The translations under genes and the position numbers were made by a program. 37,385 bases of DNA from a virus (lineage: Duplodnaviria; Heunggongvirae; Uroviricota; Caudoviricetes): IMG/VR virus record IMGVR_UViG_2651869691_000008, one strand, 5' to 3'. Under the pieces are notes generated by a model. The model did no database searches, was not told where the DNA came from, and worked only from the letters and a program-made list of their open reading frames with translations. Below, in pieces: positions 2,646 to 13,906 of the stretch. Positions within the stretch are counted from its first letter, which is position 1. The number at the start of each line of letters is the position of its first letter.

Positions 2646-3755
2646 TCACTCTGTTTCTGCTATCCATTCCGGGATTTTTGCCTCAAGCTCAAGCTGCGTG
2701 GTAAAGCCGCTGTTATCGATGGTGTGCTCGGCTTTTGCAATAATCCAGTCCTGATTATCAATCTCGCTTTTAAATCCTGTTACCGTGCCATGCATTTCGG
2801 GGTAGAGTTCTGCACGACCACATGCCAGCGTGATGGAGAATGATGCGGCTCCGCGTTGTAGCTGCTGCCACTTTGCCGCCGCTGCGCGTCTTGCTGCCTG
2901 CTCGTTCTGATAAGTCTTGCGTAACACAAACACATTGCCTTCCGCGCCTTCCATATAATCACCTTCGCGGCTGCTGCTTTTCTCCTTTTTGGGTTTTGGC
3001 GGTTTGCGGTGTTTCACGCTGACTTTTTTCTTTTTCCCGTAATTAAGATCAAGCCAGTAAGCGCGTACCCCCGTATACGCTTCGCGGTCAGCAATGCGGA
3101 ACTGATGGCGATCGCCACTGCTGCGCGTGATGGCGAACGATGGCAACGGCTGGCCCTGTGCGTTCACGCCACCGCCTGGCATAATGAATAACAGATTACC
3201 GCTTTTTACCGTGGTGATTGCGCCCAGCATTTCCGCCATGCGCGTAAGGAAGGACATGTCGCTTTCTTCGGTCTGGTCGGCGTGGTCGATTTCGATATCC
3301 ATCAGCATTTCGCTGATTTGCGGTTTCAGACCATACCGATGAGCGATGGCGGATACCACACGCTCAACGGTCACATCATGCCAGGACACCTCACGTTTAA
3401 CGTTAAATTCATCCCGAAAATCTGCGCTTCTGGCTGAAACAGTCAGCCTGTCCGGCGGTCCTTCGTGAGCGATTTCATCAACAATGTAAGTGCCTTTTTC
3501 TGTCAGCGGTTCTCCTTTCCAGCCAATGAGAACCGTCAGGCGCGCGCCCCGTGGCGGTAGCTGCAACTGACCATCCGCATCATCCAGCGTGATGGTGAGC
3601 TGGTCCGCGTCAAATCCCCGGTTGTCGGTCAGTGACAGGCTCATCAGGCGCTCTGCCACGCCTGACAGCGTTTTACCCTCCGCGAGAATATCAAAATCCG
3701 GCATTTTCACGGGGTCTGTGCCCTGACTGAGCAATTGCATGGTGGTATCGGTCAT
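2646..3755 (-). CDS. P2 gpD-like tail protein (late control gene D)
   Basis: start refined to ATG at 3755 (GGAGGG RBS 5 nt upstream) within the 2646-3887 ORF; by P2 synteny the gene preceding ogr is D; family call from position and size. Confidence 0.8.
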   Translation of the reverse strand: MTDTTMQLLSQGTDPVKMPDFDILAEGKTLSGVAERLMSLSLTDNRGFDADQLTITLDDADGQLQLPPRGARLTVLIGWKGEPLTEKGTYIVDEIAHEGPPDRLTVSARSADFRDEFNVKREVSWHDVTVERVVSAIAHRYGLKPQISEMLMDIEIDHADQTEESDMSFLTRMAEMLGAITTVKSGNLLFIMPGGGVNAQGQPLPSFAITRSSGDRHQFRIADREAYTGVRAYWLDLNYGKKKKVSVKHRKPPKPKKEKSSSREGDYMEGAEGNVFVLRKTYQNEQAARRAAAAKWQQLQRGAASFSITLACGRAELYPEMHGTVTGFKSEIDNQDWIIAKAEHTIDNSGFTTQLELEAKIPEWIAETE

Positions 3756-3912
3756 CTGTTCCCTCCCTGTGCGGCATGGTCGCATGTGCGTGCGGAGGGG
3801 GTTACTGCTTTTTGTTGTCGCCGGATCGGGAGAACGGCACAGGGGTGAGATTACGCGCGTGGTGGGTGATGATTGTTGCCGAATCATTTAACGGATACAA
3901 GGGGCTAAAGCT

Positions 3913-5097
3913 ATGAGTGAAACTCGTTTTCATGGTGCCCGTGTTACGGAAAATACCGACCTGGTAACAGCGATTAACGATGTTGATTCCAGCGTTATCG
4001 GTATCGTGGCAACGGCGGATGATGCGGACGCGAAGCTGTTCCCGCTGAACAAGCCCACACTGCTGACCCGCGTCAATGACGTGCTGGGAAAATGCGGGAC
4101 AACGGGGACGCTTTATCGTGCGCTTAAGGCCATCGCAGACCAGGTGAGCACAAAGGTGATCGTCGTTCGCGTGGCTGAACACAAAGAAGAAGACGGAAAG
4201 ACGCAGGATCAACTGGTTATCGGTGGTTCTGAATCTGACGGCAGCTATACGGGGATGTATGCGCTGCTTGTTGCAGAGCAGGATGAAAGCATCGGATACC
4301 GTCCGCGTATTCTGGCCGCGCCGGAGCTGGACACGGAGGCGGTGACAAAATCCCTGTGCGTGATTGCGGGTAAACTGCGCGCGTTTGTGTATGCCTCATG
4401 TCACGGCTGTAACACGATGGCTGAGGTGATTACCTACCGCCAGAAATTCAACGAACGTGAGGTGATGCTCTTATGGCCGGACTTCATCGCCTACAACCCG
4501 AAAAGTGGCAAAAACGAAACGTTCCCCGCGCCTGCCTATGCGTGCGGCCTTCGTGCGTACATTGACCATGAGCAGGGATGGCACAAATCACTGTCCAACG
4601 TTCCGGTTAAAAATGTGCTGGGGATGTCCAGGCATGTGTTCTGGTCGTTGCAGGCCGAAGACAGCGATGCCAACAGCCTCAACAACAAAGAAATCACGAC
4701 CATTATTCGTCGCAACGGGTTCCGCTTCTGGGGCAACCGCACACCGGAAACGAACGCCTACATCTTTGAGGTGTATACCCGAACCGCACAGGTGCTGGCT
4801 GATTCAATTGCGGAAGCGCAGTTTGAAACCATCGACAGTCCACTGACGCCTGCGAACGTGAAAGATGTTATCAGTGCCATCAGGGCAAAACTGGATTCAC
4901 TGGTTACTGCCGGGAAACTGATTGGGGCGTCGTGCTGGTATGACGTGGTGGATAACGGCACCACGAATTTACGTCAGGGGCGTGTGCGTATTCGCTACAA
5001 ATATACGCCTGTTCCCCCGCTGGAAGACATGGAGCTTTACCAGTCGTTTACTGATGAATTCTTTGGTCCCGCATTTGCGGTGCTGGGAGGTGTCTGA
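3913..5097 (+). CDS. contractile tail sheath protein (P2 gpFI-like)
   Basis: 394-aa ORF; sheath-like size and position ahead of the tube gene; opposite strand to D/ogr. Confidence 0.85.
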   Translation: MSETRFHGARVTENTDLVTAINDVDSSVIGIVATADDADAKLFPLNKPTLLTRVNDVLGKCGTTGTLYRALKAIADQVSTKVIVVRVAEHKEEDGKTQDQLVIGGSESDGSYTGMYALLVAEQDESIGYRPRILAAPELDTEAVTKSLCVIAGKLRAFVYASCHGCNTMAEVITYRQKFNEREVMLLWPDFIAYNPKSGKNETFPAPAYACGLRAYIDHEQGWHKSLSNVPVKNVLGMSRHVFWSLQAEDSDANSLNNKEITTIIRRNGFRFWGNRTPETNAYIFEVYTRTAQVLADSIAEAQFETIDSPLTPANVKDVISAIRAKLDSLVTAGKLIGASCWYDVVDNGTTNLRQGRVRIRYKYTPVPPLEDMELYQSFTDEFFGPAFAVLGGV

Positions 5098-5609
5098 TGG
5101 CTGTACCAAAACATCTTCGCTTTTTTACGCTGTTTGTGGATGGTGAAAACGAAGTGGGTAAGGTGACGTCCGTCACCCTGCCTAAACTGACGCGCAAAAC
5201 CGACAGCTATCGTGGTGGTGGCATGATGGGGGCGGTAAGTATTGATCTCGGTCTGGACGACTCCGCGCTTGATGCGAGTTTTGTTATGGGGGGAGCTGTT
5301 CGTGCGCTGTTCCTTAAATATGGCGGCACGATTGACGGCACGCTGCTGCGTTTTGCGGGTGAATACTACACCGATGCAGAAAGCGATCTGTATGAAATCG
5401 AGATGCGCGGACGTGTGACGGAAATTGATATGGGGGAAGCCAAACAGGGCGAAGCCACATCACACACTTACGCCATTAAAAACACCTACTACAAGCTGAG
5501 TGTTAACGATCGCCCGTTGTGGGAGATTGACCTGCTGAACTTCATTTACCGGAAGGACGGCAAGGACATTGTGCCCGATCGCATCCGTTCCGCGCTTGGG
5601 CTTGGCTGA
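5097..5609 (+). CDS. tail tube protein (P2 gpFII-like)
   Basis: 170-aa ORF; start overlaps the sheath stop (TGATG). Confidence 0.85.
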   Translation: MAVPKHLRFFTLFVDGENEVGKVTSVTLPKLTRKTDSYRGGGMMGAVSIDLGLDDSALDASFVMGGAVRALFLKYGGTIDGTLLRFAGEYYTDAESDLYEIEMRGRVTEIDMGEAKQGEATSHTYAIKNTYYKLSVNDRPLWEIDLLNFIYRKDGKDIVPDRIRSALGLG

Positions 5610-5663
5610 TAAGTAATATGCAGGCGGCGCAGTGCGTCGCCTCTGACTGAAAGGAGTTTCCTG

Positions 5664-6029
5664 ATGAAAGAGACGAAAAACATCGATACCGAAAACACGG
5701 TCGTTGCTGACACTGTGAAAGAAACCAGTGAGCGTGGCGTAAAACTTACCCAACCAATTGAGCGAGGCGGCGAAAAAATCACGTATGTGGAGATCACCGG
5801 AGCTATTGAGCAGGCTGGATCTCTGCGAGATTTGTCGCTGTCTGATGTGCTGAATCTGAAAGCGGAATCCATGTTTACGCTGCTGTCACGCGTGACATCA
5901 CCGCGACTGGATGAAGTGACGATCAAAAAAATGGCATCCCGTGACTTTATTCAGTTATGTGCGGTTGCCGTAAATTTTTTGAGCGGTGCGGACTCTGGCG
6001 GGAAGAACGAACAGGCGACGGAAGCCTGA
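5664..6029 (+). CDS. tail assembly chaperone (P2 gpE-like)
   Basis: 121-aa acidic ORF immediately upstream of the tape-measure gene. Confidence 0.75.
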   Translation: MKETKNIDTENTVVADTVKETSERGVKLTQPIERGGEKITYVEITGAIEQAGSLRDLSLSDVLNLKAESMFTLLSRVTSPRLDEVTIKKMASRDFIQLCAVAVNFLSGADSGGKNEQATEA

Positions 6030-6193
6030 TCACGATTGTGTGCTTTGAGCACATAGAAGACTTTGTGGCAGATATTGCCGTTATTTTTAACTGGTCGCCC
6101 GCCGAAATCTTCATGATGACGCCCGGCGAAGTGGTTAGCTGGCGTGAGCGGGCGGCACTTCGCAGCGGGAGTGCAGACAATGAAGACTCTTGA
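5664..6193 (+). CDS. gpE+E' fusion chaperone made by programmed -1 frameshift at the T-run 5975-5981
   Basis: slippery TTTTTTG at 5975-5981 in the E frame; the -1 frame continues ...FFERCGLWREERTGDGSLITIVCFEHIEDFVADIAVIFNWSP... to a stop at 6193, overlapping the T start. Confidence 0.6.
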
Positions 6194-8987
6194 TATCCGG
6201 GTCGCTTTCAGCGCCGTTGACAGGCTGACCCGGCCTGCCGAAAACGCCCGCCGCCTGATGGGGCAGTTTGGTGACTCCATCCAGCGAACGCAGGGGGCGA
6301 TCAAAAATCTCGAGCGTCAGGCGCGTTCATTTGAGCGCGCCCGCGACGCTGTCAGTAAAGCGGATGCGGGTATCGTGAAAGCACGACGCCAGCTTAACGC
6401 CCTTAATCAGTTACAACGCACGGGTACAGTGCTCAGCGAAAAACAACAAAAGCTGATGCAGCAGTTAAGCAGCCGGCTTGAACGCCTGAATGAATCGCGC
6501 ACACGGGAAATTCAGAAAATGCGGGAACTTGGCGGAGAGCTGAAACGCCACGGCATTTCCCTGACAGGCAGCGATAACACCATCCAGCAGGCCATCAGAC
6601 GCACCGAACAGTACAACAACCAGCTTGAACGCGAACGGCAGGCGCTTGCGCGTGTAACGCGGGCGCGTGAGCGGTATTCGCGCGCGCAGGAAACCGCGGG
6701 AAAACTGAAAACAGGTGGTGCGCTGGCAATTGGTGCTGCAGCGGCTGGCGGCTATGCTGCCGGGCGTTTTTTGCAGCCTGCGATCGGGTTCGGCAAAGAG
6801 ATGTCCCGCGTTCAGGCACTGACGCGAATCGACAAAAACAGCCCGCAGTTTAAGGCGCTGCGTGAGCAGGCGTTAAAACTTGGTTCTGAAACACAGTTTA
6901 CTGCGAGTGATGCCGCCAGTGGGCAGAGCTTTCTGGCAATGGCTGGTTTTACTCCGCAGGCCATTCAGGCCGCATTGCCCGGTGTTCTTAATATGGCGCT
7001 GGCAGGTGGCGTCGAACTCGGCGAGACGGCTGATATAGGCTCCAATATCCTCACACAGTTCAACCTGACAGCCGATCAAATGGACCGGGTTGGCGATACG
7101 CTGACAGCAGCATTCACCCGGACCAATACTGATTTACGCGCGCTGGGCGAAACCATGAAGTATACCGGTCCGGTTGCCGCAAAACTTGGTATCAGTCTTG
7201 AAGAAGCGGCGGCCATGGCCGGGATGCTTGCCAATAATGGTCTTCGCGGAAGCGATGCTGGTACGGCCATGCGCGCAAGTCTGTCCCGCCTTGCATCACC
7301 GCCAAAAGCTGCGGCTGATGCACTGAAAGAGCAGGGGGTGTCAGTTGCTGACGCCAGAGGCAAAATGCGCCCGATGGAGGATGTGCTGCTTGATCTCTAT
7401 AAGGCGACACAAAAATACGGACAGGTGGACCAGGTCTCCTTCTTCAAGGACATCGCCGGAGAAGAGGCGTTCGTTGGTTTGCAGACGCTTGTTGCGGCGG
7501 CTGGTTCAGGAGAACTGCAAAAACTGACCAGAGAATTGCAGGGGGCAAGGGGAGAGGCCGATCGCGTTGCAAAAGTAATGGCCGATAATCTTGATGGAGA
7601 CCTGAAAAATCTCGACAGCGCATGGGAAGGTCTTCGTATTCGCATCAGTGATCTGGTTGACGGTCCGCTGCGTTCTGTCACGCAGTGGCTCACGCGGGTG
7701 CTTGAAAAAATCACCTCGCTGGCGCAGGCCCATCCGGTACTGACGCGCCAGCTACTGATAGCAAGCGGTGCGTTGCTGGCAATGACTGCAACGATTGGCT
7801 CGTTGTCGCTGGTTATTGGGGTGCTTTACGGGAAGCTGGCCACCTTGCGTCTTGGTTTCGACATTCTTACCCGGTCAATGAATGTCATCAGGGTGTTGCC
7901 TGCGCTGTGGGGAATGGTGACGGGTTCTGTTTCTTTGCTGGGAGGAGCTATCGGGGCGCTGTTCAGTCCGGTTAGTCTTATCGTGGCTGCGCTTGCCGGC
8001 GCTGCCGTTCTTATCTGGAAATACTGGGATCCCATCAGGGCATTTTTTGCCGGGGTGTTCAGCGGGATTATGGAAAGGCTGAACCCGTTGCGTGAAACCT
8101 TTGAACGGTTTGGCCCTGTTTTTGACGCAATCGGAAGCGGGATCAGCCAGGTGTTTAACTGGTTTAAATCGCTGCTGTCACCGATGGAGTCCAGCAAGGA
8201 AACGCTGGATAAATGTACCAGTGCTGGCGAGATATTCGGTAACGTTCTTGGTGGCGCGTTACAGCTTGTTCTGACGCCTGCAAAAATGTTGCTGGATACG
8301 CTGGCGTGGATACTTGAAAAACTCGGTGTTCTTCCGGATGAAGCGGAAAGGGCGAGAAAGAAAATCGAAGACGCACAGCGTGCGGCCATTCTTCAGGACA
8401 AGGTTGCCTTACTTCAAGGGGACCTGGCGAAAATCAATCCGCCGAAGCCTGTGGAAAATGGCAATGGCACCGGAGGTGATAAACCCAAAGACAACAAACC
8501 GCTCACAGACAGCAATACCGGGACGCTACGCAGACTCAGCAAAATTGCTGATAACACAGGTAAGCTGGTTGATGAGACGAAAAAACGCATTGGCCCCGGC
8601 GATATTGTCTTTAAGAACCTGCCCCGCGCACTTGCTGTTCGTGGGGAGTGGCAGGAGCGGAAGATTGCGCAGGTCAGTAAGCCTGCCCCCGCAATTAATA
8701 TCACACCTGTGGTTCCGGCTCCGCTGCCTCCGGCGCTGGTCCCTGTTGTTGCGGCCAGCTCCCGCCCGGTGGCAGAGGCCATACGATCGCCAGTGGCATC
8801 AGTTCCTGCAACTTCCCGTAACCGGGAGACTGTTGCCTCCGGATTTGGCGGTGAAATTCATGTTCATCTGCATAACGTTGTTACGCAGAATCCCCGCGAA
8901 CTGGCGAAACTGGTCGGTGAAATGGTCAGGGCAGAGATGGAACGGCGCGCCCGTGCCGGGCGTGGCAGTTTTTACGATAAAGATTGA
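6180..8987 (+). CDS. tail tape measure protein (P2 gpT-like)
   Basis: long ORF, coiled-coil-rich N-terminus, Ala/Gly-rich hydrophobic middle; ATG at 6180 preferred (GGGAG RBS) over GTG at 6144. Confidence 0.85.
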   Translation: MKTLDIRVAFSAVDRLTRPAENARRLMGQFGDSIQRTQGAIKNLERQARSFERARDAVSKADAGIVKARRQLNALNQLQRTGTVLSEKQQKLMQQLSSRLERLNESRTREIQKMRELGGELKRHGISLTGSDNTIQQAIRRTEQYNNQLERERQALARVTRARERYSRAQETAGKLKTGGALAIGAAAAGGYAAGRFLQPAIGFGKEMSRVQALTRIDKNSPQFKALREQALKLGSETQFTASDAASGQSFLAMAGFTPQAIQAALPGVLNMALAGGVELGETADIGSNILTQFNLTADQMDRVGDTLTAAFTRTNTDLRALGETMKYTGPVAAKLGISLEEAAAMAGMLANNGLRGSDAGTAMRASLSRLASPPKAAADALKEQGVSVADARGKMRPMEDVLLDLYKATQKYGQVDQVSFFKDIAGEEAFVGLQTLVAAAGSGELQKLTRELQGARGEADRVAKVMADNLDGDLKNLDSAWEGLRIRISDLVDGPLRSVTQWLTRVLEKITSLAQAHPVLTRQLLIASGALLAMTATIGSLSLVIGVLYGKLATLRLGFDILTRSMNVIRVLPALWGMVTGSVSLLGGAIGALFSPVSLIVAALAGAAVLIWKYWDPIRAFFAGVFSGIMERLNPLRETFERFGPVFDAIGSGISQVFNWFKSLLSPMESSKETLDKCTSAGEIFGNVLGGALQLVLTPAKMLLDTLAWILEKLGVLPDEAERARKKIEDAQRAAILQDKVALLQGDLAKINPPKPVENGNGTGGDKPKDNKPLTDSNTGTLRRLSKIADNTGKLVDETKKRIGPGDIVFKNLPRALAVRGEWQERKIAQVSKPAPAINITPVVPAPLPPALVPVVAASSRPVAEAIRSPVASVPATSRNRETVASGFGGEIHVHLHNVVTQNPRELAKLVGEMVRAEMERRARAGRGSFYDKD

Positions 8988-8993
8988 GGAGTC

Positions 8994-9488
8994 ATGGCCA
9001 TGATGATGATCTATGGCATGTTTGTTTTTGAGCTGCGCACGTTGCCGCATCAGCAGTTACAGCAAAACAAAAGCTGGCGGCATGTGAAAAATGAACGCGT
9101 TAACCGTTCAGCAAGCTGGCAGTATATCGGGGCAGGCGATGATCGCATCGTTCTTTCTGGTGTGCTTTATCCTGAAATTACAGGTGGCGAAGTGTCGCTT
9201 TCGTTGCTGACCTCGCAGGCATATACAGGACGCCCCTGGCCTCTGATTGATGGTGTCGGGCAGATTTACGGCATGTATGTCCTGACCGGAACGAATACGA
9301 CCCGCTCCGAGTTTGATCGCTACGGTAAGGCGAAAAAGATAGAATTTTCACTGACTCTTGAACGCTGTGATGAGGATTTGCGGGAGCGCCTGCAATCCTC
9401 ATCGTTCAGTGATATGCTGTCCGGCTTCAAAGATAAGGTCACATCATCCCTTAACAGCGCGGCCAGCTCCGTTAAAGGGCTGTTTTGA
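8994..9488 (+). CDS. tail protein (P2 gpU-like)
   Basis: 164-aa ORF directly after the tape measure; GAGGAG RBS. Confidence 0.75.
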   Translation: MAMMMIYGMFVFELRTLPHQQLQQNKSWRHVKNERVNRSASWQYIGAGDDRIVLSGVLYPEITGGEVSLSLLTSQAYTGRPWPLIDGVGQIYGMYVLTGTNTTRSEFDRYGKAKKIEFSLTLERCDEDLRERLQSSSFSDMLSGFKDKVTSSLNSAASSVKGLF

Positions 9489-9492
9489 TTAA

Positions 9493-9525
9493 CGCAAAAC
9501 CGCTAATGGTCAGATTAGCGGTTTT
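9493..9525. terminator. bidirectional hairpin between convergent U and invertase genes
   Basis: AAAACCGCTAAT-GGTCAG-ATTAGCGGTTTT, 10-bp stem flanked by A/T runs. Confidence 0.5.
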
Positions 9526-10114
9526 CATTTTCCTGAGTCTGCCTGGTTGTTTCTTCAGCCTGTATATCGCCTACAGGGTGATAACGATAAATCGTCGATA
9601 TGCCGATGTCGTAAATGATCGCCAGTTGTTTCCTGTCATGACCGTTTTTAATCAGCCTCGCTATTTGCTCGTGTTGTTCTTTTGTCAACTTCGGGCGACG
9701 TCCGCCAATGCGTCCTTGTGCGCGTGCTGCTGCCAGCCCGGCCAGTGTACGCTCTACAATTAATTCACGTTCCATTTCGGCTAAAGCCCCCATGACGTGA
9801 AAAAAGAAACGCCCCATGGGTGTTGATGTGTCAATGCTGTCCGTCAGACTACGGAAATTAACACCTTTTTCCCGCAATTCCTCAATAAGCGTGATCAGGT
9901 GTTTCATACTTCTGCCCAGTCTGTCCAGCTTCCAGACAACCAGCGTATCTCCTTCTGATAGCGTTCTGAGCAGTTTTTTCAATCCCGGTCTGGCTGATTT
10001 CGTTCCGCTGATTTTATCTTCAAAAATCAGTTCACATCCTGCGCAGTTCAGTGCATTGCGTTGTAAATCCGTGTTCTGGTCATTTGTTGACACACGAATA
10101 TAGCCAATTTGCAT
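9515..10114 (-). CDS. serine DNA invertase (Hin/Gin/Cin/Pin family)
   Basis: ATG at 10114 (AAGAGGA RBS) gives MQIGYIRVSTNDQNTDLQRNAL...LVVWKLDRLGRSMKHLI...GRIGGRRPKLT, resolvase catalytic domain plus C-terminal HTH; the longer 9515-10324 ORF is an N-terminal artefact. Confidence 0.9.
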   Translation of the reverse strand: MQIGYIRVSTNDQNTDLQRNALNCAGCELIFEDKISGTKSARPGLKKLLRTLSEGDTLVVWKLDRLGRSMKHLITLIEELREKGVNFRSLTDSIDTSTPMGRFFFHVMGALAEMERELIVERTLAGLAAARAQGRIGGRRPKLTKEQHEQIARLIKNGHDRKQLAIIYDIGISTIYRYHPVGDIQAEETTRQTQENENR

Positions 10115-10168
10115 AAAAAACATCCTCTTTGTTTCGTGAAAAATACATAGTTGGTATAGGTAGGGATA

Positions 10169-10194
10169 AAAACGAAAACGTTGGTTTGGGGGAA
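10169..10194 (+). other. hix/gix-like 26-bp recombination site at start of cassette 1
   Basis: AAAACGAAAACG-TT-GGTTTGGGGGAA; shares the AAAC(C/G)-NN-GGTTT core with sites at 10683, 11200 and (inverted) 12761. Confidence 0.6.
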
Positions 10195-10689
10195 GGTTCT
10201 GCGCTGCCTGTTGGTGTGCCCGTTCCATGGCCCTCAGCCACACCACCAACGGGCTGGCTGAAATGCAATGGTGCAGCATTTTCTTCTGAAATGTATCCCG
10301 GACTGGCAAAAGCCTACCCCGCAAATAAATTACCGGATTTACGGGGAGAATTTATTCGCGGCTGGGATGATGGGCGCGGGGTGGATGCTGGCCGCGCTTT
10401 GCTTAATTGGCAGCCACACACAATTTTGGATCATGCACACTATATGGAATTATGGACCGGGAACGGACTTGCCGTGGAAAGTGCACGGGAAGGATTAAAC
10501 CCTGGAATACTGGCTACATACGGGGACGGGGGAATAGTTAAAACAGACGAACCCGGTTTAAGGGTGCCTTCCTCACTACGAGCCATTAGCTCTCGTAATG
10601 TAAAACGGTTTGGTGAAATTAGTGGAAATGTAGGTACAGAAACTCGCCCTCGCAACGTTGCATTCAATTACATCGTAAGAGCCGCATGA
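10183..10689 (+). CDS. silent (promoterless, startless) tail-fibre C-terminal tip cassette 1
   Basis: in-frame GLGEGSALPVGVPVPWPSATPPTGWLKCNGAAFSSEMYP...RGWDDGR identical to the H junction region, divergent middle, conserved C-terminus ETRPRNVAFNYIVRAA; no in-frame ATG with RBS. Confidence 0.7.
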   Translation, partial: GLGEGSALPVGVPVPWPSATPPTGWLKCNGAAFSSEMYPGLAKAYPANKLPDLRGEFIRGWDDGRGVDAGRALLNWQPHTILDHAHYMELWTGNGLAVESAREGLNPGILATYGDGGIVKTDEPGLRVPSSLRAISSRNVKRFGEISGNVGTETRPRNVAFNYIVRAA

Positions 10690-10708
10690 AAACGTTGGTT
10701 TGGGGGAA
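10683..10708 (+). other. hix/gix-like recombination site at start of cassette 2
   Basis: CGCATGAAAACG-TT-GGTTTGGGGGAA; overlaps the cassette-1 stop codon. Confidence 0.6.
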
Positions 10709-11206
10709 GGTTCTGCGCTGCCTGTTGGTGTGCCCGTTCCGTGGCCCTCAGCAACACCACCAACGGGCTGGCTGAAATGTAACGGCGCAGCATTTTCTTC
10801 TGAAATGTATCCCGGACTGGCAAAGGCTTACCCCACCAATAAATTACCGGATTTACGGGGTGAATTTATTCGTGGCTGGGATGATGGACGTAGTGCGGAT
10901 GCGGGGAGAACAATATTATCCGCTCAAGGTGATGCCATACGTAATATCTATGGTGAGTTCAAGACTGTAAACACTGAAAATTATTCAATATGGGAATCAG
11001 TAGGCTCGTTTAAGGGGGCAGTGGTGCCTTTAAATTCCTCAACAAACAATAGTTATTTCTCCTTAGTCAGAAGTATGGTGACAGAAAGGACAGACGGCGC
11101 TGTTTACCCAAAAGTGATTGGCCTTGATGCTTCAAAAATTGTTCCAACTGCAAACGAAAACCGCCCACGCAACATTGCGTTTAATTACATCGTAAGGGCA
11201 GCATGA
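10697..11206 (+). CDS. silent tail-fibre C-terminal tip cassette 2
   Basis: same conserved N-linker and C-terminal RPRNIAFNYIVRAA, distinct central region. Confidence 0.7.
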   Translation, partial: GLGEGSALPVGVPVPWPSATPPTGWLKCNGAAFSSEMYPGLAKAYPTNKLPDLRGEFIRGWDDGRSADAGRTILSAQGDAIRNIYGEFKTVNTENYSIWESVGSFKGAVVPLNSSTNNSYFSLVRSMVTERTDGAVYPKVIGLDASKIVPTANENRPRNIAFNYIVRAA

Positions 11207-11225
11207 AAACGTTGGTTTGGGGGAA
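11200..11225 (+). other. hix/gix-like recombination site at start of cassette 3
   Basis: AGCATGAAAACG-TT-GGTTTGGGGGAA. Confidence 0.6.
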
Positions 11226-11693
11226 GGCTCTGCACTGCCCGTTGGTGTGCCTGTTCCATGGCCCTCAGCCACACCACCAACGGGCTGGCTGAAATGTAAC
11301 GGTGCAGCATTTTCTTCTGAAATGTATCCCGGACTGGCAAAGGCTTACCCCACAAATAAATTACCGGATTTACGCGGAGAATTTATCCGTGGCTGGGATG
11401 ATGGGCGAGGAATTGATGCGGCACGCGCTTTATTGAGCATTCAAAACGGGATGTTGGAAAAACACCGCCATATTGTTGTAGCTAACGATGGATATGACAC
11501 AAAAGATGAATGGGAGTTGGCTACGATTTTCAAAAAAACATATACACAAGGCAGGGGACTTGATGCCACAAATACAGGAGGGAGTTTGATTCCATCACCA
11601 ACGCTTCATTCACGAGGAAGTATTGGTAACACAGGTGGTAGTGAAACCCGCCCCCGCAATATTGCATTTAACTATATCGTGAGGGCGGCTTAG
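11214..11693 (+). CDS. silent tail-fibre C-terminal tip cassette 3
   Basis: same conserved N-linker and C-terminal RPRNIAFNYIVRAA, distinct central region. Confidence 0.7.
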   Translation, partial: GLGEGSALPVGVPVPWPSATPPTGWLKCNGAAFSSEMYPGLAKAYPTNKLPDLRGEFIRGWDDGRGIDAARALLSIQNGMLEKHRHIVVANDGYDTKDEWELATIFKKTYTQGRGLDATNTGGSLIPSPTLHSRGSIGNTGGSETRPRNIAFNYIVRAA

Positions 11694-11699
11694 TTATAT

Positions 11700-12311
11700 T
11701 CAACTGGCTGATGCCAGTGGTATTTCCGGCAAGTTGATATCTGGTGCCATGTTTATATCCATTGCGTTCAGCGCGTCTATATAATCCAGCACGGCATTAA
11801 GCCGGGTGGTTTCTGCCTGCGTCAACTTCCGCCCGGCCCGCAACTTCAACTGAATCAGACTTATGGAATCCATTGCCGCATCAGCCAGTGACTGGCGCTT
11901 GGTTTCTGCCGCTTCTACTGCGGCACGATGTTGTACCTCAGTATCTGTCACCCATTTTTCACCATCCCATTTATCGTATGGTGTTAACGGGGCGATAGTG
12001 GTTGTATTTTTCGGGTAGTCACCCAGCGCCGTGATTTCTTCGGTGTTTCCCGTGTCAGTGCTATAGACGGTTTCACCACGATGGTCTGGCGCATACTCCC
12101 ATGAATTTAAATCCTCCGAACGGCGAATAGCATAGCCAGATTTATGTGCGCCTGGGGCATCTAAACAGGAATTAGCCGGAATACCAACACCCACAGCAAG
12201 ATATTCAGTTGATTCGGAAATATATTCCCGTGTCTCACCATCATAGTTATAAACGACGATGTTTCCTGCCTGTACGGCAATAAGGTCATCATTTAATATC
12301 GCGTTATTCAT
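11700..12311 (-). CDS. tail fibre assembly protein (P2 gpG / Tfa-like chaperone)
   Basis: 203-aa ORF immediately after H (start overlaps H stop, TAATG); Tfa-like position and size. Confidence 0.8.
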   Translation of the reverse strand: MNNAILNDDLIAVQAGNIVVYNYDGETREYISESTEYLAVGVGIPANSCLDAPGAHKSGYAIRRSEDLNSWEYAPDHRGETVYSTDTGNTEEITALGDYPKNTTTIAPLTPYDKWDGEKWVTDTEVQHRAAVEAAETKRQSLADAAMDSISLIQLKLRAGRKLTQAETTRLNAVLDYIDALNAMDINMAPDINLPEIPLASAS

Positions 12312-13906
12312 TATGCGGTTCTCACAATATAATTGAAGGCAATATTGCGTGGGCGGGCTTCATTCCCCCCTGAGGATTCCGTTCTGTATTGACTGGTAAA
12401 TCTACCGTTAATTGCACCTTGCCGGACGGCGTTATCTGTCGACAACAGACTATCCCCTCCTTTGTCATTTGGCACCAGTACCGTGTTATCCCACGCGTCC
12501 CATGACCGAATATTATGATAATGACTTCCTGTTAACCACCCCTGCATGCTTAAGATGCCCCTTCCGGCATCCACCCCGCGCCCATCATCCCAGCCACGGA
12601 TAAATTCACCGCGTAAGTCTGGTAATTTATTGGTGGGGTAAGCCATTGCCAGTCTGGGATACATTTCAGAAGAAAATGCTGCGCCGTTACATTTCAGCCA
12701 GCCCGTTGGTGGTGTTGCTGAGGGCCACGGAACGGGCACACCAACGGGCAGTGCAGAACCTTCTCCTAAACCAAGGTAATCAAGAACGCCCTGAGTGCTG
12801 GTTTTACCAAGAATGGCACGTCCAACACTTGTCAACGCGGTTAACGCGGCACGATCTGCCCCTGTAAAATATGGGAGTTTATCTGCTGATGTAGCAAGCT
12901 TCGCCAGCGCCGTCAGGATGGCATCCTTCGGTTGCTTACCCGCAAGCGCGTTAGTCATGGTGGTCGCAAAATTCGGGTCATTGCCCAGCGCCGCAGCCAG
13001 TTCGTTCAGCGTGTTCAGTGCATCAGGTGACGAATCTACAAGTGCGGCAATCGCGGCCATAACGAAAGCTGTGCTTGCGATCTGGGTATTATTAGTCCCC
13101 TGTGGCGCTGTTGGTGTTGTTGGCGTTCCGGTCAGTGCCGGGCTGTTTAATGGTGCTTTCTTGTTCGTTTCATCCATTACCACCTTAACAGCTTTTGGTG
13201 TCGCTGCCAGCGTTTCAGACGTGCTGTTCGTGGCGCTACTGAGCTGAACAATCCCTTTTTGTGTAGTGGTGGCGTTCTGGGCGGTATATTTCCCGTTAGC
13301 CAGGTCATATGCAGCCTTAACCGCTTTCGGTGTTGCGGCCAGTGTTTCTGATTCACTGTTAATTGCACTGCTTAACTGAGTAAAACCTTTTACGGTCAGC
13401 GAGGCGTCCGGGTGACGTCGTGATTGTTCGTGCTCTGATATTTTATCATCCACATATTTGCGGGTTGCCAGAACCACAGACGGGTCGATTTTCAGCGTGA
13501 TGGCTTCGGTGTTCGTGACAACCAGAATCATGCGGATAGTCTGGGTGCGTCCACTGCCTTCCTGCAACTGCGGTTTGTACGTTTCCGGGCAGTTTGCCAC
13601 CGCAATGAGTACACCTTCATCATCATAAAGACCAATCTCACGGATCCAGAATCCTCCCTCGTTTTCAGGGATGATTTGCTCCGCAATAATCTGGCTCTGA
13701 TTGTTAGGGTCAACACTCAGAAGATTCAGCGGTGCAATGCGTTTCTGGTTAATCAGTTTTGTTTGTGCAGGGTCTGGTGTTGGTAACACACCATTTGCAT
13801 CACCAACGGCCATTTGCGTCAGATTCAGCTTACTGCCGAGCATCGTCGCGTTAGCCAGTCGTGCCGCGCCCTGATTAGTCAGAATGGCGTAGTATTTCAC
13901 TGTCAT
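12311..13906 (-). CDS. tail fibre protein (P2 gpH-like), currently fused to variable tip 0
   Basis: N-terminal two-thirds P2 H-like (AEHEQSRRHPDASLT, repeated QLSSA..S.SETLAATPKAVK, ALGNDPNFATTMTNALAGKQPKD); after ...DYLGL the sequence matches the cassette linker, then a unique tip ending EARPRNIAFNYIVRTA. Confidence 0.9.
   Translation of the reverse strand: MTVKYYAILTNQGAARLANATMLGSKLNLTQMAVGDANGVLPTPDPAQTKLINQKRIAPLNLLSVDPNNQSQIIAEQIIPENEGGFWIREIGLYDDEGVLIAVANCPETYKPQLQEGSGRTQTIRMILVVTNTEAITLKIDPSVVLATRKYVDDKISEHEQSRRHPDASLTVKGFTQLSSAINSESETLAATPKAVKAAYDLANGKYTAQNATTTQKGIVQLSSATNSTSETLAATPKAVKVVMDETNKKAPLNSPALTGTPTTPTAPQGTNNTQIASTAFVMAAIAALVDSSPDALNTLNELAAALGNDPNFATTMTNALAGKQPKDAILTALAKLATSADKLPYFTGADRAALTALTSVGRAILGKTSTQGVLDYLGLGEGSALPVGVPVPWPSATPPTGWLKCNGAAFSSEMYPRLAMAYPTNKLPDLRGEFIRGWDDGRGVDAGRGILSMQGWLTGSHYHNIRSWDAWDNTVLVPNDKGGDSLLSTDNAVRQGAINGRFTSQYRTESSGGNEARPRNIAFNYIVRTA
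12761..12786 (-). other. hix/gix-like recombination site inside H at the constant/variable junction
   Basis: minus strand reads TTCTTGATTACC-TT-GGTTTAGGAGAA, inverted relative to the three cassette sites. Confidence 0.6.

Follow-up and report, generated by a model that had tools for sequence, protein, structure and literature searches.

Tail fibre switching by inversion of DNA segments is textbook knowledge, whether as Din-family inversion in general, as the Min system of p15B or as the 'shufflon' of enteropathogenic Escherichia coli (EPEC). The Min system of p15B and the P1-like phage-plasmids is reportedly the work of Sandmeier, Iida and Arber from 1990-92. For a P2-like prophage locus in EPEC E2348/69, sequencing and polymerase chain reaction (PCR) detected two overlapping inversions of approximately 2,200 and 1,800 bp, and the coexistence of all four variants was verified by PCR (PMC4272514, Goldberg et al. 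2014). A segment of pMCR_SCKP-LL83 reported to be 99% identical to p15B min carries a pin-like recombinase, one 612-bp tfaE gene and six candidate cassette open reading frames of approximately 145-157 amino acids, annotated only as 'hypothetical protein' (PMC5786510). Here we analyzed a stretch of 37,385 nucleotides (IMG/VR record IMGVR_UViG_2651869691_000008, hereafter the window), an E. coli P2-like prophage whose nearest complete E. coli genomes are 95-99% identical. It contains an array of four alternative tail fibre tips, one of which (tip A) is fused to the tail fibre protein gpH, while tips B, C and D are silent cassettes, together with a single tail fibre assembly chaperone gene, tfa (Table 1). 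In this locus the Min multiple-inversion system of p15B occurs in a version belonging to a P2-like prophage; switches of this kind are already known and have experimental precedent.

The reading that we favor, to which we assign a probability of roughly two in three, is that of a Min-type switch in which a C-terminal motif shared by all tips forms part of a split collar domain, Tfa acts as a generalist chaperone and tfa is expressed also from outside the H operon. The switch itself is well documented. The protein encoded next to crossover site s1 matches Pfam Resolvase (3e-50) and HTH_7 (1.3e-12) as well as phrog_125 ('DNA invertase', 1e-98), has the N-terminal catalytic domain and C-terminal helix-turn-helix layout of a small serine recombinase, and is encoded by a coding sequence equal in length to those annotated by RefSeq in the related loci L001, L002 and L005 (loci used for comparison are given by number). 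Four 26-bp sites with a TT core were recognized, three on the plus and one on the minus strand, so that the inverted orientation is present. Sites s1 to s3 read ...GAAAACG TT GGTTTGGGGGAA, and s4 lies on the opposite strand. Each cassette begins at such a hix/gix-like site, and the sites fall exactly at the junction between the shaft and the tail collar.

Natural isomers of the array confirm the inversion mechanism. In isomer L010 the left half-site on the H side is joined to a right half of the B/D type, and the distinctive right half of tip A (GGTTTAGGAGAA) stands behind a silent left half; these combinations place the exchange at the TT core to within a few bases. The left half of s1 stays beside the invertase gene in all isomers. 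Two states of a minimal two-tip array are represented by L092 and L093, while L002, L013 and L021 carry another tip fused to H, followed by a silent tip A and then tfa, and in L006, L010, L012, L020 and L023 tfa is convergent with H. For the E2348/69 prophage (L005), which has the same layout as the window, the computed segment lengths fit the two lengths reported from the experiments. As an additional observation, L010 has duplicated B- and D-type cassettes.

All four tips share the same architecture, namely a collar N-half of approximately 70 amino acids, a variable insert of 70-90 amino acids and a C-terminal segment of 14-16 amino acids. A preliminary description of this DNA had stated that the tips have a C-terminal motif in common. 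The tips lie where it had placed them, and each terminates in E-x-RPRN(I/V)AFNYIVR(A/T)A directly before its stop codon; a six-frame regular-expression scan of the window returned the motif exactly four times, always in these tips. Its view that the motif is conserved as protein while the DNA drifts was borne out by a codon alignment, in which 11 of the last 16 codons (those for P, N, A, F, N, Y, I, V, R, A and A) show synonymous change. The motif was also without variation among 30 diverse homologues (Escherichia, Salmonella, Enterobacter, Serratia and Xenorhabdus), and P2's own gpH is without it. Closer examination of the inserts revealed an HxH sequence (two histidines around any residue) after the collar in tips A (HYH), D (HAH) and C (HRH), with NIYGEF in its place in tip B. 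Two insert classes can be distinguished in this way, the HxH class of tips A, C and D and a class with Q(G/S)DA(I/L)(R/Q)NIxG, found in tip B and in the H-fused tip of L002 (L002:4189-5793), and the short tail fibre of phiTE (9cuy) aligns with the latter.

The Pfam domain Collar (PF07484, Phage Tail Collar) was detected in all four tips with E values of 1e-13 to 2e-14. When gpH was compared with PDB sequences by phmmer, its residues 383-449 aligned to residues 26-92 of the T4 gp37 tip (2xgf_A) and its residues 507-531 aligned separately to residues 218-242, the last 25 of that chain (...ENTVKNIAFNYIVRLA). Domain D10 of gp37, which has the gp12 collar fold, consists of residues 811-881 and 1010-1026, two parts between which the receptor-binding needle D11 (residues 882-1009) forms an insertion (PMC6957217, Islam et al.). 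Together, the boundaries of D10 and the alignment indicate that each cassette encodes two collar halves with a variable insert between them, and by sequence alignment the shared motif would be the returning C-terminal half of the split collar. Lambda Stf (orf-314) shares the collar N-half, has an HxH needle and ends in ...KNIAFNYIVRLA. As an element of the fold the motif would be expected to be conserved in the protein and free to drift synonymously, so that no chaperone argument is needed to account for its conservation.

The collar N-halves are also repeated at the DNA level, with 88-91% complementary or identical DNA over 214-240 nucleotides (10178-10391, 10687-10908, 11204-11443 and 12543-12782). 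Set against the synonymously drifting C-terminal motif, the uniformity of these 5' repeats suggests concerted evolution by gene conversion near the crossover sites.

The silent tips are functional and under purifying selection. In comparison with orthologues, the ratio of nonsynonymous to synonymous substitution rates (dN/dS) of the inserts was 0.02-0.47 for all four tips at synonymous rates (dS) of 0.13-1.2, and the ungapped orthologues were without stop codons. Values ranged from 0.2 to 0.27 for tip D and from 0.16 to 0.47 for tip B, while tip C was the most strongly constrained with 0.02-0.2 (at dS of 0.46-1.2). Every tip type was found fused to H in some genome, tip D in L012 and L019, tip B in L010 and L021, and tip C, with tfa convergent, in L006, L020, L023 and L093.

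The product of tfa belongs to the lambda Tfa type, as it matches Pfam Caudo_TAP (9.6e-31) and phrog_105 ('tail fiber assembly', 1.3e-90) and aligns over its full length with lambda Tfa at 35% identity (E 3e-35); its homologues carry both Caudo_TAP_N and Caudo_TAP. The gene is located directly 3' of the fibre gene, with its ATG overlapping the stop codon of gpH (TAATG). It is the only Caudo_TAP gene between 9.5 and 13.9 kb, in agreement with the earlier claim that four tips have a single chaperone gene among them. For comparison we assembled 87 loci with a Tfa relative, comprising 88 tfa copies, in addition to the window. All 88 copies lie directly behind a tip with a collar C-terminus. Min-type arrays contain from 2 to at least 9 cassettes, and in these arrays tfa is always found directly behind an A-type tip and is single in all but one (L015). 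At least nine cassettes are accompanied by one tfa in L028 (1134-5974) and at least eight in L033 (1-4702). The exception, an IMG/VR contig (L015:4058-6612), has two tfa copies with mirrored flanking cassettes, and its doubled tfa may be an artefact of assembling mixed inversion isomers and not a real duplication.

The contrast that had been drawn between the window and Mu-type segments is real; the P2-like phage L004 has two convergent tfa genes. In two-arm segments of related phages, a Tfa gene of its own stands directly behind each tip of the B, C and D types, joined to it by a stop/start overlap, and the encoded proteins are 77-80% identical to that of the window. Additional chaperone genes beside such cassettes in relatives, which the preliminary description had named as a finding that would speak against its proposal, do therefore exist for these three tip types and count against it in part.

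The range of tips with which related Tfa proteins are paired is wide. Identical Tfa N-domains (residues 1-110) are paired with tip inserts of only 31% identity, and N-domains at least 97% identical occur with three further combinations of unrelated inserts (variable regions 26-31% identical). For TfaMu and Pam3 gp25 the variable N-domain has been assigned to fibre binding and the conserved C-domain to trimerization, and models of Tfa/gp38 action have assembly begin at the C-terminal end of the fibre (PMC9608196; PMC3004832). The occurrence of near-identical Tfa N-domains with unrelated inserts, together with the universal pairing with the collar C-terminus, favors a generalist Tfa, which would read the shared collar and C-terminus of its clients; we infer that its docking place on the tip lies there. 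The earlier proposal of a universal C-terminal element read by one shared chaperone fits these pairing data, although the alignment marks the motif as structural first of all.

Orientation of tfa relative to H was analyzed with a state model based on breadth-first enumeration of the allowed inversions, which gave 12 reachable states for the window. As had been noted before, tfa is part of the invertible DNA; it is located between s3 and s4 and consequently in every segment that can be inverted from the present state. The accompanying statement that tfa flips away from H after any inversion holds for every single step, whereas two-step states restore the A-tfa orientation behind another tip, the arrangement found in nature in L002, L013 and L021. 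Expression of tips B and D is compatible with both orientations of tfa relative to H, co-oriented and opposed. Tip C, in contrast, lies with A-tfa on a stretch without an intervening crossover site and can for this reason be expressed only while tfa and H are convergent. The elements C> <tfa <A form an indivisible core, and the chromosomal lineage always has a C-type cassette tail-to-tail with tfa. Among the natural arrays with a resolved H fusion, tfa was opposed to H in 8 of 19 (42%). The result is a sharp puzzle, in that expression of tip C requires an arrangement in which the only chaperone gene runs opposite to the fibre operon. Given the strong constraint on tip C and the presence of a separate Tfa beside C-type tips in other genomes, it is simplest to infer that tfa also has a source of transcription outside the H operon.

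In the mechanism that we propose, the Din-family invertase would recombine the four TT-core sites at the shaft/collar junction and thereby swap the tips of gpH, and the C-terminal segment of each tip would return to complete the collar around a variable receptor-binding insert. Tfa would act on the invariant collar/C-terminal region, where trimerization is thought to start, and not on the insert, and in this manner one tfa could serve from 2 to at least 9 cassettes. In the opposed states Tfa would be made from non-H transcription that either enters on the side of the invertase gene or arises inside tip A. A more specific form of this mechanism, in which the generalist Tfa reads the split collar/C-terminal segment while an undescribed promoter, on the invertase side of the array or inside it, allows tfa to be expressed from both sides, is offered tentatively and with the odds against it.

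Several results weigh against the favored reading. A scan for sigma-70 promoters and terminators over 9.4-14 kb returned counts at the level of chance and no promoter for an opposed tfa, and the same scan gave no minus-strand promoter inside tip A and none that was convincing in the spacer between the invertase gene and s1. Read-through from the converging FI-U operon was considered as a source of plus-strand transcripts and is formally blocked by the strong bidirectional hairpin at 9496-9525. A TGT-N12-ACA box in the spacer (TGTTTCGTGAAAAATACA) was considered as a late promoter and rejected, as no such box is present at the likely late promoters (TGTTGT...AGAAC..CAGGGG upstream of FI and P). 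The AlphaFold2 monomer of tip A, computed from a 30-sequence alignment, reached a pLDDT (predicted local distance difference test) score of only 45 and a pTM (predicted template modeling) score of 0.32, too low for the model to be of use, as is to be expected of an intertwined trimer; the return of the C-terminal segment to the collar is supported at the level of sequence, by the alignment to gp37 and the published boundaries of D10. Furthermore, tip-insert identity and Tfa N-domain identity are correlated (r = 0.44), which, like the fixed pairing of tip A with Tfa, may reflect linkage or a partial tip-specific adaptation.

Some observations on transcription of the region can be added. The terminator at 9496-9525 ends both converging transcription units, and cassettes D, B and C on the plus strand are promoterless. 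Read-through from a converging operon was also discarded as a general solution, since P1-like Min arrays are without such an operon. Every Min-type spacer examined had the TGT-N12-ACA box, and Mu-type spacers lacked it. The pattern of the box corresponds to the P2 Ogr-box consensus. The window contains four exact matches to it versus nine expected by chance, and the box, kept only among closely related spacers, is a weak lead and not evidence. On the minus strand a simple scan of 9526-12311 detected no terminator from tfa to the invertase gene. In the ground state, transcription of the late H operon could therefore continue across the cassettes, which lie in antisense to it, and run into the invertase gene in its sense direction. 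The short tail fibre of phiTE, the top sequence match in PDB, proved uninformative about the structure of the collar, as only residues 3-92 are modeled in the corresponding paper.

The alternatives to the favored reading concern the nature of the motif and of the silent tips as well as the supply of the chaperone. Frameshifted cassettes do exist in some relatives (L003), and the preliminary description had raised the possibility that the silent tips are non-functional remnants. The cassettes of the window lend no support to such decay: their frames are uninterrupted, dN/dS stays well under 1 with dS reaching 1.2, each type is fused to H in other genomes and inversion has been verified experimentally in E2348/69, which makes this explanation virtually untenable. 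A role of the 14-residue motif mainly as a dedicated docking tag for Tfa, rather than as a need of the fold, is doubtful to a much lesser degree. Every Tfa of this subfamily comes after a motif-bearing tip, as does that of lambda in the Stf and Tfa pair, and models in the literature place the action of Tfa/gp38 at the C-terminus of the fibre. However, T4 gp37 has the same C-terminus with gp38 and gp57A as its native chaperones and no Caudo_TAP protein, the motif aligns to part of the D10 collar of gp37 (residues 1010-1026), and the Tfa of Mu binds a distal tip and not a collar (PMC9608196). A docking tag is putative, and roles of the motif in fold and docking can coexist.

If only tip A needed Tfa and the other tips trimerized unaided, the orientation of tfa would be irrelevant for them. 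Such an arrangement would agree with the fixed association of tfa and tip A in all Min-type arrays, with the strong conservation of a tip C that never co-transcribes tfa with H, and with the proportion of resolved natural arrays in which tfa is opposed. We nevertheless regard it as unlikely, given that two-arm relatives keep a separate Tfa for B, C and D tips, a retention not expected of dispensable chaperones, and that collar-type fibres of solved biology (T4 gp37 and gp12) require chaperones. The adjacent Tfa genes of B-, C- and D-type tips in related prophages likewise argue against the earlier suggestion that the silent tips fold without a chaperone. More improbable still is a supply of Tfa in the opposed states in trans by other prophages of the same cell, for which no second promoter would be needed. 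The E. coli genomes that match the region do so at a median of 2 and at up to 26 places, and Tfa looks like a generalist, but a phage cannot count on every new host to harbour suitable prophages, and minimal two-tip arrays are kept in many backgrounds.

The positions of the array elements and of the adjoining genes are listed in Table 1.

Table 1. Elements of the tail fibre array of the window and adjoining features
Feature	Position	Strand	Remarks
Tape measure gene	6144-8987	+	
gpU gene	8994-9488	+	
Hairpin terminator	9496-9525		Bidirectional, between gpU (+) and invertase gene (-); 12-bp stem, T runs on both sides
Serine DNA invertase gene	9515-10114	-	Din family (Hin/Gin/Cin/Pin/Min), 199 amino acids; Pfam, PHROG
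Fixed spacer	10115-10168		From invertase start codon to s1; holds TGT-N12-ACA at 10130-10147
Crossover site s1	10169-10194	+	AAAACGAAAACG TT GGTTTGGGGGAA; hix/gix-like 12+2+12 layout
Silent tip D	10183-10689	+	Collar N-half, HxH-type insert, C-terminal motif 10639-10686; Pfam Collar 2.6e-13
Crossover site s2	10683-10708	+	Stop codon TGA of tip D within left half
Silent tip B	10697-11206	+	Collar N-half, insert without HxH (DAIRNIYG class), C-terminal motif 11156-11203
Crossover site s3	11200-11225	+	Stop codon TGA of tip B within left half
Silent tip C	11214-11693	+	C-terminal motif 11643-11690; tail-to-tail with tfa, 6-nucleotide gap
tfa, tail fibre assembly chaperone gene	11700-12311	-	Lambda-Tfa type, 203 amino acids; fixed unit with tip A
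gpH tail fibre gene	12311-13906	-	531 amino acids; constant part and fused tip A (12311-12772); C-terminal motif 12314-12361
Crossover site s4	12761-12786	-	Within gpH; TTCTTGATTACC TT GGTTTAGGAGAA

In the surrounding tail region, gpH, which has the Pfam matches Phage_tail_fib, Phage_fiber_2 and Collar, is followed in gene order by I, J, W and V. The FI-FII-E-T-U tail operon (2646-9525 of the window) is inverted relative to canonical P2 and converges on the invertase/cassette array through the terminator, with gpD (2646-3887) and FI in divergent orientation. The P2-like phage with the Mu-type segment (L004), on the other hand, retains the canonical co-directional order of the tail operon. The reading frame of the first cassette is open upstream across the fixed spacer to a TTG at 10129 (MFREKYIVGIGRDKNENVGLGEG...; 10129-10182), likewise in L002, and judging from this frame the cassette adjoining the invertase gene, whichever it is, could in principle yield a free tip on translation.

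If the more specific, tentative form of the mechanism given above is true, a collar N-half followed by any insert and by RPRNIAFNYIVRAA would constitute a portable, chaperone-compatible scaffold, which would explain the growth of arrays to at least nine cassettes with one chaperone and provide a design rule for the engineering of receptor-binding tips. For host-range engineering of phages and tailocins the comparison suggests that new specificities could be grafted between the collar halves, and tips grafted in this way may need no matching chaperone.

Among the closest known systems, the Min array of p15B has the same Din-family invertase, several crossover sites, a constant 5' part of the fibre gene with many collar-type 3' cassettes and one 203-amino-acid tfa within the invertible DNA (L089). 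Approximately 200 P1-like phage-plasmids contain the region at approximately 88% nucleotide identity, with one tfa and 3-7 cassettes annotated as 'phage tail protein'. In contrast to this system, where the array is attached to a P1 S-type fibre, that of the window is located on a P2-type gpH in a chromosomal prophage, and it has four cassettes versus six in p15B; moreover, the cassette tail-to-tail with tfa is of the D type in the P1-like L089 and of the C type in the window. The 'shufflon' prophage of EPEC E2348/69 shares the lineage, the order T, U, invertase, cassettes, tfa and H, and 96% identity over the shared part with the window, although it has three tips and four states instead of four tips and 12 reachable states. 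The Mu G and P1 C segments (Gin/Cin) use the same invertase family and also swap the 3' end of a fibre gene, but each of their two arms has its own Tfa (U, U'), whereas the window has more than two arms and one Tfa, which does not follow each tip. Lambda Stf/Tfa and the T4 gp37 tip (2XGF) have the same collar N-half, HxH needle (tips A, C and D) and ...NIAFNYIVR.A ending, and lambda also has a lambda-type Tfa immediately downstream of its fibre gene; they differ in their single long needle of HxH repeats and in being without inversion, while the inserts of the window measure 70-90 amino acids and that of tip B is without HxH. The R64 shufflon (Rci/pilV) is alike in that multiple inversions place alternative C-termini on one constant gene; it relies on a tyrosine recombinase, acting on sfx sites, to vary a pilus adhesin and is not homologous to the system of the window with its serine invertase. 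To these systems the present comparison adds a rule, that of a common split-collar scaffold and a single lambda-type Tfa for very different inserts.

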